Assembly (NCBI GenBank): GCA_015059545.1
Contig: SVAG01000002.1
Coordinates: 8,653-72,652 of the forward strand
Direction of reading: 5' to 3'
DNA: 64,000 nt
Origin: Lactobacillales bacterium
GTDB taxonomy: Bacteria > Bacillota_I > Bacilli_A > RF39 > UBA660
Shown here: in pieces, positions 18,629 through 22,593 of the stretch
Position numbering within the stretch: the stretch's first letter is position 1
Layout of the letters: each line of letters begins with the position of its first letter
The notes under the pieces: generated by a model
The model's input: the letters and a program-made list of their open reading frames with translations, nothing else
Database searches by the model: none
Told to the model about the DNA's origin: nothing
Program-made: the position numbers and the translations under genes

Positions 18629-18949
18629 TTATTTGTTTTCTTTACTATTTAATATAAATTGTACTCCAAGTACTATTAATAACACTGGAATTGATAGTCT
18701 TAAAACTAATTCAAAATCTAAAATATTTTGACAACATAATAATAAAATAATTCCTATTATAATTCCTACTGTATTAGCAAATATATTTTTTTTCATAATT
18801 ACATTTATTAAACATGGAATTATAATTACAAGTGTCCACCATCCATCAAATAAAAGATTTATATTTGTTATTTCTAAAATATTTAAACTTGTTACTACAC
18901 CTACTATTATAAGGAGAATTCCCCATACTATATTACTTACTCTATTCAT
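18629..18949 (-). CDS. LiaF-like 4-TM membrane protein
   Basis: WGILLIIVG...FDGWWTLVIIIP pattern. Start moved to ATG 18949 behind GAGG. Confidence 0.7.
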   Translation of the reverse strand: MNRVSNIVWGILLIIVGVVTSLNILEITNINLLFDGWWTLVIIIPCLINVIMKKNIFANTVGIIIGIILLLCCQNILDFELVLRLSIPVLLIVLGVQFILNSKENK

Positions 18950-18953
18950 ATTA

Positions 18954-19775
18954 CTACCTCTCATATTCATCTAAAAATGAATGTTTTTCTTTATTTTTTG
19001 TATATCCTAATATACAATTTAAATTAACATTATCGATACTTTTAAATAAGTTATCATCTACATTAGGATTGTTTTTTTTCATATTTTTTATTAAATTTTT
19101 CATTTCTATTCTTTTACTATCTTCTTCTTTTTTACTTACACCTTCTGTAAATCTACAAGCACAATTAATAAATTTTAAATTATTACTTTTACTCCATGAT
19201 ATAATGTCTTCTTCTTTTACTAGATAAAGTGGTCTAATAAGTTCTAAACCAGGAAAATTATCACTATGAAGTTTTGGCATCATTGTTTTTACTTCTGATC
19301 CATAAAACATTGAAAGAAGTGTTGTTTCTATTACATCATTGAAGTGATGTCCTAAAGCTATTTTATTACATCCTAATTCTTTAGCTCTATTATATAAACA
19401 TCCTCTTCTCATTCTAGCACATAAATAACATGGACTTTTTTCTACATCTTTTACTACATCAAATATATTTGATTCAAATACTTCGATATTTATATTTAAT
19501 CTTTTAGCGTTTTCTAGTATTAAATCCATATTTTCTTTATTATATCCAGGATTCATAATTACATAGTGTGCTTCAAAAGGAAATTTACCATGTTTTATTA
19601 ATTCTTCTATACATTTAGCAAGCAAATAAGAATCTTTTCCTCCACTTATACAAACCATAATTTTATCATTTTCTTTTATAAGTTCATATTCACTTACGGC
19701 TTTTACAAATCTACTCCATATTTCTTTACGATATTTTTTTATTATCGATCTTTCTATTTCTTTATATTCTTCCAT
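18954..19775 (-). CDS. ttcA: tRNA 2-thiocytidine biosynthesis TtcA-family PP-loop ATPase
   Basis: SGGKDS, PCYLCARMRRG, ALGHH.ND, IRPL, CAC. Confidence 0.85.
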   Translation of the reverse strand: MEEYKEIERSIIKKYRKEIWSRFVKAVSEYELIKENDKIMVCISGGKDSYLLAKCIEELIKHGKFPFEAHYVIMNPGYNKENMDLILENAKRLNINIEVFESNIFDVVKDVEKSPCYLCARMRRGCLYNRAKELGCNKIALGHHFNDVIETTLLSMFYGSEVKTMMPKLHSDNFPGLELIRPLYLVKEEDIISWSKSNNLKFINCACRFTEGVSKKEEDSKRIEMKNLIKNMKKNNPNVDDNLFKSIDNVNLNCILGYTKNKEKHSFLDEYER

Positions 19776-19860
19776 TTCAAACTCCTATAAAATATTTCTA
19801 TTTTATTATATCATTTTCTTTTTACTTTTACATCAAATATTATCATTTTTAAAATAATAA

Positions 19861-19888
19861 TTGACAATTATTTTATTAATAGTATAAT
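19861..19888 (+). promoter_or_regulatory. Consensus sigma-A promoter for microprotein gene
   Basis: TTGACA(19861-66), 16 bp, TATAAT(19883-88). Confidence 0.8.
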
Positions 19889-19909
19889 ACCTTTTAAAGG
19901 AGGATTTTT

Positions 19910-20035
19910 ATGGGTGGAGGCGGAGGCGGAACTGGTAGTCCTGTTACAATAAATAAAAATAAACAAAAAAAATTAAGTTTATTTAAAAATATTTTAAAAG
20001 ATAATAAAATTAAAATTAAAAATAAATCTAAATAA
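19910..20035 (+). CDS. 41-aa poly-Gly / Lys-rich microprotein
   Basis: AAAGGAGG RBS; MGGGGGGTGSPVTINKNKQKKLSLFKNILKDNKIKIKNKSK*; flanked by promoter and terminator. Confidence 0.8.
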   Translation: MGGGGGGTGSPVTINKNKQKKLSLFKNILKDNKIKIKNKSK

Positions 20036-20038
20036 AAC

Positions 20039-20071
20039 AAAAACATTGTAAATTTTTAACAATGTTTTTTT
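20039..20071. terminator. Bidirectional intrinsic terminator (microprotein / pepC)
   Basis: AAAAACATTGT...ACAATGTTTTTTT. Confidence 0.8.
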
Positions 20072-20089
20072 AGTAATTTTTTAATAAAA

Positions 20090-21397
20090 TCAATCTATTT
20101 TAGCATCCCATTTATTTATTTTTATTGGTTTTCTATTTAGAATTTCAATTGTTTTTGAGTCTAAATATTTCTTATTAATGACTGCTACATATACATACTT
20201 GTTTACCCAATCATCATCAGCAATATAATCACCTTTTACACCATATTTATCTCCCCAACTATTTTCTATTTTCCATTTAATTGGTTTATCATCAATTGTT
20301 TTAACTCCAGTAAATATCATACAATGTTGTCCTGTTCTACCATTAGTTTTAATAATATCATTATGTTCTAATCTTAAATTAACATCAAATATATCACTAT
20401 ATCTATCCATTGTATCTATCCATATTCCTTCAATTCTTTTTGAGGTAGTTGAACTATAAAAATAAACTGGTTCTCCATCTTTTAATTGATTAATCATTGA
20501 TTCTTTCAATTTTTCATTTTCTATTATTAAAACTTTTAAATCTTCGGTACCACTTACTTGAGAAGTGTCTTCTAATTGATATAGATTATTATATTTATAT
20601 TTATCATCTATATAACAACCAATTTCTACATAATCATTTAATAAATCTATTCCTATATATTTTTCATAAAATTGTTTAGGTGTTAAATTTTTATCAATAT
20701 GATATTTACCATCTTTATCCATATATTCAAAATCAAACATTTCAGAAGGAATACCATATAAACTAGATATAATTTTATATGCATCATTTATATATTTATC
20801 TTTTATTTCATCAGTATTTATATTTTCTTTTTCTATTTCTAAATAAAATTTTCTTAATAATCTGGATAATATTTGATTAACCTCATATGTATTTGATGAT
20901 TGATATGTTTCTGGAAAAATATCTTTAGGTACAATACCATATTTATCTATTAAATGTGCAAATTGAGTAAACCATCCTCCATCATAAATACCATCTTTTA
21001 ATATATCAGATACATATCTATCATACAAATCTTTACCTTCACTTTTATATTCAAGAATATTTTCTAATTTTTTATTAAATCGTTCCAATTTATCATAAAA
21101 AGCAATATAACTTCCAGATAATTCAAAATTTTTTAAATTACATTTTTCAATTACTTTTTCTCTTAATATATTAAGATTTGCAAATGACCAACAACGTCCA
21201 GTAAATTTTTGATCAGTAATTCCATGAGTTTCAATATTAATATTGAATTGTGAACTAATTTGTGTATCTTTATCGGTTATTAAATCAACTAATTGAACCT
21301 TATTCAACATCCTATTTAAAACTTTATTTTTTTTATCATTTTCATAAAATTTTTTTAATTCATTTAATTTTTCTTTTTTTAGCATATTTTCCTCCAA
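20090..21397 (-). CDS. pepC: Aminopeptidase C / bleomycin hydrolase (C1B)
   Basis: DQKFTGRCWSFA, DGGWF, HCMIFTGV, WKIENSWG. Confidence 0.92.
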   Translation of the reverse strand: MEENMLKKEKLNELKKFYENDKKNKVLNRMLNKVQLVDLITDKDTQISSQFNINIETHGITDQKFTGRCWSFANLNILREKVIEKCNLKNFELSGSYIAFYDKLERFNKKLENILEYKSEGKDLYDRYVSDILKDGIYDGGWFTQFAHLIDKYGIVPKDIFPETYQSSNTYEVNQILSRLLRKFYLEIEKENINTDEIKDKYINDAYKIISSLYGIPSEMFDFEYMDKDGKYHIDKNLTPKQFYEKYIGIDLLNDYVEIGCYIDDKYKYNNLYQLEDTSQVSGTEDLKVLIIENEKLKESMINQLKDGEPVYFYSSTTSKRIEGIWIDTMDRYSDIFDVNLRLEHNDIIKTNGRTGQHCMIFTGVKTIDDKPIKWKIENSWGDKYGVKGDYIADDDWVNKYVYVAVINKKYLDSKTIEILNRKPIKINKWDAKID

Positions 21398-21429
21398 TTA
21401 TATAAAAACTTTTTTATATAATCATTATA

Positions 21430-22593
21430 TCATTTTCTTTTTACTTTTACATTACCTATTATAATTTTTCTTATATTATCATCATCTATTGTTTTATTTG
21501 TTTCTAAATATTCTTTTATTTTTATAACTATTTCATCTATATTATCTAAATATTCTTCTAGATTTAATTCTTTCATTTTATTTATAATTGCATGTTTTCC
21601 TGAATGGATTCCAATTACTATATTATCATTATTAATTCCTAAATCATCTGTATTTATTATTTCATATGTACTTTTATTTTTAAGTACTCCATGTTGATGT
21701 ATTCCTGCTTCATGTTTAAAGGCATTTTCTCCTACAATTGGTTTATTTCTTTGAACAATTGATCCTGTAATATCTACTAATAATTTACTAGAATTAATTA
21801 TTTCTTTTATATCAATATTTGTATCAGCATTATAGTAATCATTTCTTATTTTTAAAGCCATTACTATTTCTTCAAGTGCAGCATTACCAGCCCTTTCACC
21901 TATTCCATTTACTGTACATTCTACTTGAGTTACACCATTTTTTATTGCTTCTAATGTATTAGCAACTCCAAGTCCTAAATCATTATGACAATGTGTTGAT
22001 AAAGTAATTGTATCTATATTAGGTACATTATTTTTAATATATTCTATTATTTCTTTATATTCTGTTGGTGTTATATAACCTACTGTATCTGGAATATTTA
22101 TAGTAGTTGCTCCACTATTTATTGCTTCTTTTATAACACTCACCATAAACTCTTTTTCTGTTCTAGTAGCATCTTCTAATGAAAATTCTATATCATCACA
22201 TAAGCTTTTAGCATATTTAACCATTTCTTTTACTTTATTTAATACTTGTTGTTCTGTCATATTAAGTTTATTTTCCATATGTATTTTTGAAGTAGCTATA
22301 AATACGTGTATTCTTTTCTTTTTAGCAAACCTTAGTGATTCGTATGCTTTATCTATATCATCTTTATTTAAACGAGCAAGTGATGTAATAATAGGTTTTG
22401 TAACATTTTTAGATATTTCTTCTATAGCTTTTAAGTCTTTTGGACTACTTGCTGCAAATCCTGCTTCAATAACATCTACATTTAATCTTTCTAATTGGCG
22501 AGCAAACTCTACTTTTTCTTCTAATGTCATACTACATCTTGGAGATTGTTCTCCATCTCTTAACGTTGTATCAAATACTTTAATCGTTTTCAT
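21430..22593 (-). CDS. leuA: 2-isopropylmalate synthase, short form without C-terminal regulatory domain
   Basis: DTTLRDGEQ, HCHNDLGL, GIGERAGN, HEAGIHQHG; Leu-rich leader upstream. Confidence 0.88.
   Translation of the reverse strand: MKTIKVFDTTLRDGEQSPRCSMTLEEKVEFARQLERLNVDVIEAGFAASSPKDLKAIEEISKNVTKPIITSLARLNKDDIDKAYESLRFAKKKRIHVFIATSKIHMENKLNMTEQQVLNKVKEMVKYAKSLCDDIEFSLEDATRTEKEFMVSVIKEAINSGATTINIPDTVGYITPTEYKEIIEYIKNNVPNIDTITLSTHCHNDLGLGVANTLEAIKNGVTQVECTVNGIGERAGNAALEEIVMALKIRNDYYNADTNIDIKEIINSSKLLVDITGSIVQRNKPIVGENAFKHEAGIHQHGVLKNKSTYEIINTDDLGINNDNIVIGIHSGKHAIINKMKELNLEEYLDNIDEIVIKIKEYLETNKTIDDDNIRKIIIGNVKVKRK

Follow-up and report, generated by a model that had tools for sequence, protein, structure and literature searches.

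Species-specific orphan genes of gut bacteria, as portrayed by Vakirlis & Kupczok 2024 (PMC11293555), are short and lack similarity outside their species. The micro-gene described here shares both traits with them, together with a partly disordered product (in our case a prediction), non-optimal codons (GGC), the lack of viral similarity and a gut organism as its source. It differs from these orphans in having canonical expression signals of exceptional strength and, as regards de novo origin, in that its orthologous region is not alignable in the relatives examined. Bacterial proto-genes, as described by uz-Zaman & Ochman 2025 (PMC12542359), are likewise taxonomically restricted, have a low-complexity body and carry no hallmark of a specific function, and according to the same authors most of the novel small proteins of bacteria look as if they evolve neutrally. 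Whereas the codon statistics of those proto-genes are indistinguishable from non-coding DNA, those of the micro-gene are gene-like, its translation being one that we infer from the sequence. The micro-gene fits the known class of species-specific gut-bacterial orphan genes (PMC11293555) and proto-genes (PMC12542359).

The micro-gene is located in a window of 64,000 nucleotides, by which we mean the whole stretch of DNA that was analyzed, on contig C11 of a 1.19-Mb genome (11 contigs, 93% complete, 24% G+C). With slightly more belief than doubt, we consider it a real, stand-alone and young micro-gene or proto-gene restricted to its species, probably translated into a cytoplasmic polycationic peptide whose likeliest activity would be non-specific binding to nucleic acids or ribosomes. 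If expressed, it would be a clear-cut natural case of a bacterial micro-gene of very recent origin with full-strength expression signals, its coding body made of in-frame hexanucleotide repeats at a datable rearrangement junction, and as such would be of use in the debate over the origin of orphan genes in gut bacteria. Alone, it opens no long-standing question and has no link to a defined cellular process.

Among established small proteins, the ribosomal families bL34 and bL36 resemble the micro-protein in size (37–41 aa), in being very basic, in lacking a signal peptide and in having a strong Shine–Dalgarno (SD) sequence; the L34 gene of the source genome also has a perfect promoter, as has the micro-ORF. 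The micro-protein differs from both families in that it has no sequence similarity to any family, is basic through Lys only rather than through Arg and Lys with Cys or Zn motifs, and is unconserved within its genus.

Signals, reading frame and predicted product

The micro-ORF is positioned between two minus-strand genes, being divergent from the left one, a PP-loop ATPase gene that we take to be TtcA-like (ttcA), and convergent with the right one, pepC. The features of the locus, with positions numbered within the window, are as follows:

18954–19775, minus strand: PP-loop ATPase gene (PF01171), left neighbor of the micro-ORF
19861–19888, plus strand: sigma-70-type promoter TTGACA-16-TATAAT from the promoter scan, matching at 12/12 positions and divergent from ttcA
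19896–19903, plus strand: SD sequence AAAGGAGG, followed by 6 nt and then the ATG at 19910
19910–20035, plus strand: 41-codon ORF MGGGGGGTGSPVTINKNKQKKLSLFKNILKDNKIKIKNKSK plus its stop codon TAA (20033–20035)
20039–20069, both strands: AU-rich hairpin of 11 bp with flanking A and T runs, −8.4 kcal/mol, z −2.2
20090–21397, minus strand: aminopeptidase C-like gene pepC (Peptidase_C1_2, E 6.3e-106), right neighbor of the micro-ORF

Downstream, 2976 nt separate the micro-ORF from the start of the next ORF of at least 100 aa on the plus strand, and two minus-strand genes lie in between. At the far side of the left neighbor, a 113-aa membrane ORF (18629–18970, minus strand) shares 17 nt with the 3′ end of ttcA; of LiaF, it has just the transmembrane domain (PF22570, E 1.8e-12).

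In the promoter, TTGACA (19861–19866) and TATAAT (19883–19888) are separated by a spacer of 16 nt. It was the sole 12/12 match among the 23 promoter-like sites found in 19000–21500, the total of 23 not being above that of shuffled sequences (mean 28.1). Across the whole genome, we found 27 perfect TTGACA-N16–18-TATAAT sites, roughly fivefold more than the 3, 9, 8, 6, 4 and 4 sites found in six genomes simulated with a first-order Markov model. Nearly all of the perfect promoters (24/27) avoid the interior of ORFs that reach 100 aa, and for 16 of the 26 besides that of the micro-ORF an ORF of this size begins on the same strand no more than 110 nt downstream. Most perfect promoters of the genome thus precede real genes; further ones are found ahead of what are presumably two tRNA-like sequences and the genes for L34 and S16.

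The start region conforms to the rest of the genome as well. The −10 box lies 21 nt from the ATG at the micro-ORF and 18–25 nt from it at other strong promoters of the genome, and the GGAGGATTTTTATG context of the micro-ORF is found identically at the start of a real gene (C7:11202). Transcription would start at about 19895–19897, giving a leader of about 14 nt. The pattern AGGAGG-N5–8-ATG occurs at 170 sites in the genome, and at 154 of them the ORF that follows is 50 aa or longer, with 129 ORFs of at least 100 aa, 25 of 50–99 aa, 5 of 30–49 aa and 11 shorter ones. The micro-ORF is among the five of 30–49 aa, and two of those five are, we assume, L36 and L34.

The first-pass annotation had described a complete stand-alone expression unit, and its parts are indeed in place: the 12/12 promoter, AAAGGAGG, the 6-nt spacer, the ATG and the ORF. 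Its terminator stands in a modified form. The hairpin at 20039–20069 is present, but it is AU-rich and fails the scan for G+C-rich terminators, which returned 0 sites, and it serves pepC too. On the minus strand, directly after the pepC stop codon, the fold is equally good, and the 63-nt stretch there, which also contains a second small hairpin, reaches −10.2 kcal/mol. The hairpin is a bidirectional terminator common to the micro-ORF (plus strand) and pepC (minus strand) and, as it folds as well on both strands, it is not evidence specific to the micro-ORF unit.

The translated sequence of 41 residues agrees with the one given in the first-pass annotation, with 11 Lys and 1 Asp. The 30 A/T-rich codons that follow the Gly head are stop-free in only 1.6% of dinucleotide shuffles (n = 20,000) and 1.2% of mononucleotide shuffles, and the other two plus-strand frames contain 3 and 9 stops. 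We then scored codon usage as log-odds between ORFs of at least 120 aa and the remaining DNA of the genome. The micro-ORF scored 0.43 per codon (head 0.77, tail 0.30), while 41-codon windows drawn from long ORFs have a mean of 0.46 (sd 0.31) and 246 intergenic ORFs of 30–60 aa a mean of −0.33 (sd 0.42), with 5.7% of the latter reaching 0.43. The shifted frames of the micro-ORF scored −0.12 and −0.82, and codon usage is thus gene-like in the ORF frame only. Among 482 intergenic ORFs of 25–70 aa, the micro-ORF ranks 22nd by log-odds, those ranked above it being mostly, as far as we recognize them, ribosomal or other small genes. It speaks against the gene that much of its coding sequence is simple repeats and that its K/N/I-rich tail is of the kind that the genome's A-rich DNA would encode in any case, as weak DNA matches to many unrelated genes demonstrate. 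A 50-aa antisense ORF (19894–20046) was rejected, as its log-odds is −0.28, no SD was seen and its start lies within the terminator hairpin. Taken together, the promoter, the SD, the open frame and the codon usage make an expressed and translated unit the most economical reading, and by these intrinsic signals the micro-ORF is a credible small-protein gene.

The sequence of events that we consider most probable begins at the consensus sigma-70 promoter, from which a short mRNA (about 175 nt) would be made, having a leader of 14 nt and a complete SD and its end being set at the hairpin common with pepC, and this mRNA would be translated to the 41-residue peptide. Gly at position 2 and the one methionine aminopeptidase of the genome suggest that Met is removed, which would leave GGGGGGTGSPVTINK at the N terminus. 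The Met-less peptide has 40 residues, a mass of 4.24 kDa, a pI of 10.7 and a net charge of +10. Its hydropathy is low (GRAVY −0.98), with 9 of the 41 residues hydrophobic and no hydrophobic run longer than 2, and we found no signal peptide, hydrophobic segment or membrane anchor in the 41-aa peptide. AlphaFold2, run on the single sequence without an alignment, gave a mean pLDDT of 86 with residues 1–15 as coil and 16–39 as helix. The product would then be soluble and cytoplasmic, with a floppy Gly-rich N terminus and one Lys-rich helix. Against a specific function, no motif is recognizable in the peptide with Pfam or NCBIfam, and a nucleic-acid-binding polycation, one of the roles put forward in the first-pass annotation, remains plausible. 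Any activity would probably consist of binding RNA, ribosomes or DNA non-specifically through charge; equally, the peptide may come from a proto-gene that is expressed without specific selection acting on it as yet.

Relatives, repeats and history of the segment

Among 5.8 billion proteins searched by word index, there was a sole match, P0001, which has 41 aa, is 98% identical to the micro-protein (S40Y) and comes from another metagenome (JGI/IMG), where it is encoded on a single 1750-bp contig. phmmer, run exhaustively against 1.84 billion representatives, found P0001 once more and, besides it, P0002–P0005, which we rejected as relatives since they are repeat proteins of 1158–2281 aa matching by composition. 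The ESM Atlas contains the exact 41-aa peptide, with no usable match among its look-alikes. The exact peptide there and the S40Y variant in JGI/IMG mean that gene callers did call the ORF.

Profile and DNA searches were negative throughout. The micro-ORF product matched 0 Pfam families at E ≤ 1 and 0 NCBIfam profiles at E ≤ 10, and a degenerate pattern covering codons 1–13 at the DNA level had 0 matches in species-representative genomes and 0 in JGI metagenome contigs, two collections that may lack records close to the window. The unit had no DNA match in the phage and plasmid collections. An SD-led ORF with Met and at least 5 Gly was found in 1 of 301 genomes of the family, the source genome alone. 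We also examined 196 syntenic loci in total. With tblastn and a search for short ORFs whose start is rich in Gly, none of 108 genome loci gave a credible candidate (best E 0.11), and in 80 metagenome loci the best match (E 0.033) has an in-frame stop; the 8 best pepC loci elsewhere (50–70% identity) have no comparable ORF downstream. The first-pass annotation had named a comparison with related MAGs, by tblastn or small-ORF databases, as the check on its reading. A six-frame search of 40 relatives gave nothing significant (best E 0.096), but the nearest relatives, at 72–79% TtcA identity and with synteny lost at this locus, are too distant for a fair judgement of frame conservation. By these searches, the micro-gene is an orphan restricted to its species. 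Of 24 sequencing runs listed, six contain 77–93% of the sampled words of 19300–20700, and among those listed as containing this region none is an RNA run.

The relatives found via the neighboring gene are MAGs of uncultured gut Bacilli from ruminants, rabbits, mice and people, variously labeled Erysipelotrichaceae or Tenericutes. The TtcA-like gene is present in 28 of the 31 genomes searched, the closest copies having only 72–79% protein identity, and among 29 ttcA loci pepC adjoins ttcA only in the source genome. The upstream neighbor of ttcA is not constant among the six same-genus loci, and its change in nearly every same-genus genome (loci L018–L025) indicates a rearrangement hot spot; in L020 and L021, a 372-aa ORF on the same strand abuts ttcA, and no divergent gene was found upstream of ttcA in the relatives' loci examined. 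For pepC itself, none of the six genomes of the genus gave a match at E ≤ 1e-30, whereas 1 of 15 genomes of the family did; its best homologue elsewhere has 70% identity. Its presence here probably reflects gain in this lineage or differential retention. In the six same-genus genomes, the DNA matches of the unit, among the matches listed, cover only its A-rich tail or its A/T-rich promoter and never the Gly head.

Repeats are found both within the ORF and around the segment that holds it:

19805–19850, minus strand: copy A of a 46-nt repeat, in the ttcA upstream/promoter segment, left border of the novel segment
19916–19930, plus strand: perfect tandem repeat (GGAGGC) × 2.5, encoding most of the Gly run
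20005–20026, plus strand: tandem repeat (TAAAAT) × 3.7 with 93% matches, encoding KIKIKNK
21424–21469, minus strand: second copy (B) of the 46-nt repeat, ahead of pepC and at the right-hand border of the novel segment

Copies A and B are direct repeats with 91% identity and an identical 29-nt core that contains TGATATAAT on the minus strand, and they are found at equal distance upstream of ttcA and of pepC. The repeat looks like a duplicated extended −10 promoter. The stretch 19795–19855 has an 82% match just upstream of ttcA in one relative (locus L091), and since copy A is thereby homologous to the relative's ttcA upstream region, the 1.6-kb segment of micro-ORF and pepC is bracketed by direct repeats of the ttcA promoter. 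Across the genomes compared, this bracketed segment is lineage-specific.

Within the ORF, the Gly run is unusual for the genome. Met-Gly6 is the longest Gly run found among the genome's ORFs; the 1203 ORFs with 100 aa or more have no run longer than 4, and four runs of 4. GGC makes up 1.6% of the 18,141 Gly codons in long ORFs and 2 of the 7 Gly codons in the micro-ORF. The first-pass annotation took the GC-rich Gly codons as an argument for selection. We read them otherwise, as both GGC codons sit within the perfect (GGAGGC)2.5 repeat; if one duplication made both, they amount to a single unusual event. The hexaglycine is best explained by slippage of a hexanucleotide repeat. The two hexamer repeats and the rare GGC together point to recent growth by slippage and not to long selection. 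The micro-gene would then be young, being part of a 1.6-kb segment at a junction and having a coding sequence made largely of in-frame hexanucleotide repeats; the (GGAGGC)2.5 and (TAAAAT)3.7 repeats, the twofold GGC, the 46-nt repeats and the failure to find pepC in the six same-genus genomes all argue for this age. One similar stretch was seen elsewhere in the genome. A pilin-like ORF of 1127 aa (C6:84335) has Gly4-Thr encoded by GGTGGAGGCGGAAC, the only other genomic site where a Gly run includes the rare GGC. It has a 14–16-nt match to the head of the micro-ORF, which it matches after removal of one hexamer; the match is probably a coincidence of Gly-codon habit and not homology.

The same history can be read differently, as the promoter, SD and ATG could be the functionless remains of a gene removed or cut short when a rearrangement brought pepC beside ttcA; the 41-codon frame would then be left by accident and serve no purpose, whether translated or not. 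We consider this unlikely, yet deserving a full hearing. The unit is placed exactly at the rearrangement junction, in a segment flanked by direct repeats and next to the lineage-specific pepC, and synteny upstream of ttcA varies among the same-genus genomes examined. Signals so perfect would hardly have formed de novo on the spot, and the body of the ORF is repeat-rich. On the other hand, the 13-residue head is in no other protein (by degenerate DNA patterns, and with phmmer giving compositional matches only) and no relative has a divergent gene upstream of ttcA. A relic is also at odds with a tail that is open beyond chance, with codon usage like that of genes and with a frame that is intact in a second sample, in the form of the S40Y variant.

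RNA and export readings

The short transcript could also matter as RNA. Dual-function sRNAs resemble the micro-gene in being short stand-alone transcripts with their own promoter and terminator and an ORF of fewer than 50 codons; in the micro-gene, in contrast, no conserved RNA structure, Rfam family or target was found. The predicted mRNA (180 nt) folds at −25.2 kcal/mol (z −2.0), and its 5′ end can form a hairpin:

19898–19945, plus strand: predicted 5′ hairpin in which GGAGGA of the SD pairs with UCCU of codons 10–11; contains three GGAGG motifs

This hairpin is weak (−13.3 kcal/mol, z −1.9), 11 of 200 shuffles folding as well, and by this model the SD may be partly sequestered within it. 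Rfam gave 0 matches on both strands at E up to 10.

In an account centered on the RNA, an sRNA or dual-function RNA of about 175 nt would be the functional product, acting through its G-rich 5′ hairpin or through convergent transcription: either the three GGAGG motifs target C/U-rich partners (anti-SD sequences, C-rich RNAs), or transcription towards pepC is what counts. We give little credence to this account, in either mode. What speaks for it is a short transcript bracketed by a strong promoter and a terminator, the presence of three GGAGG motifs within 35 nt in a genome of 24% GC, the z of −2.0 for the fold of the whole transcript and the rare GGC codons, which suggest a constraint on nucleotides rather than on codons. 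The fold scores are marginal, however, and due mostly to the terminator, and Rfam is empty even at E up to 10. Nor did we find an extended complementary target in a genome-wide search with 14-mers and up to 2 mismatches, which gave scattered short matches only, or a C-rich sRNA of the RsaE type. An RNA function also leaves unexplained the perfect SD, its spacing, the ATG, the open frame and the coding-like codon usage.

The first-pass annotation further suggested a cross-linking tag, with the N-terminal oligoglycine as nucleophile for sortase-type enzymes, or an antimicrobial peptide. The natural nucleophile of sortase A is the pentaglycine bridge of lipid II, the lipid-linked wall precursor outside the membrane. 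The micro-protein is similar in that, after Met removal, it would have a free N-terminal run of at least 5 Gly, Met-Gly6 being present in the sequence and a methionine aminopeptidase gene in the genome, and the source genome has homologues of sortase and FemAB; it differs in being a ribosomal peptide without an export signal. A text search for natural small proteins with N-terminal oligoglycine gave only papers on enzyme technology and reviews of small proteins, which is no proof of their absence in print.

An exported peptide, serving as Gly nucleophile for sortases or wall transpeptidases or as a secreted cationic antimicrobial, is in our view very improbable. The net charge of +10 and the Gly6 that would be exposed once Met is removed agree with such a role, and the enzymes are encoded: 3 sortase-domain ORFs, with PF04203 matches above the cut-off, 2 FemAB-family ORFs and the one methionine aminopeptidase. 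The peptide, however, has no signal peptide or hydrophobic segment, its GRAVY being −0.98, and lacks the architecture of a double-glycine leader, as its Gly run follows directly after Met. No transporter, immunity or modification gene adjoins the micro-ORF, whose neighbors are the PP-loop ATPase and the C1 peptidase genes. With the enzymes present but neither a signal peptide nor an adjacent transporter, the sortase or cross-linking role is not borne out. The antimicrobial role fares no better, as the predicted helix at 16–39 (mean hydrophobicity −0.48) is not amphipathic by this model: its muH of 0.21 is reached by 47% of shuffles. Finally, no SD-led ORF with Met and at least 5 Gly occurs in 300 further genomes of the family, and the arrangement is therefore not a conserved system. 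More improbable still, to the point of being nearly negligible, is a genetically encoded oligoglycine acceptor, in which an abundant peptide would leave the cell without a leader and have its Gly6 ligated by one of the three sortases or used by wall transpeptidases, replacing the bridge built by FemAB. If this were true, LPXTG proteins or wall stems would be capped by a +10 polylysine-like tail and the surface charge altered.

Two further classes were excluded: a type I toxin, as the hydrophobic transmembrane peptide is lacking (GRAVY −0.98, no hydrophobic run above 2), and a leader peptide or attenuator, as no co-oriented gene follows directly downstream, the next plus-strand ORF being 2976 nt away.

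Other observations in the source genome

Only 29 tRNA genes were detected genome-wide, with a single tRNA-Gly (UCC). TGA is the stop codon of 80 of 958 long ORFs and the tRNA-Trp is CCA; since TGA is still a stop and the tRNA-Trp reads as CCA, the genome uses code table 11 and decodes it with a minimal set.

Several other small ORFs were noted. On C2 at about 54.3 kb, there are two adjoining ORFs of 47 and 53 aa, with leaders that we take to be like those of double-glycine bacteriocins. Three tiny ORFs of 27, 41 and 51 aa with strong SDs are found on C3 (about 67.7–67.8 kb) and C1 (about 11.3 kb); they have in common a Gly/Tyr/Cys-rich head and a hydrophobic tail motif and form a small paralogous family of membrane micro-proteins. 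On C6 at about 238.7 kb, two tandem ORFs of 63–70 aa presumably resemble small acid-soluble spore proteins of the alpha/beta type, a hint that this small-genome gut bacterium forms spores.
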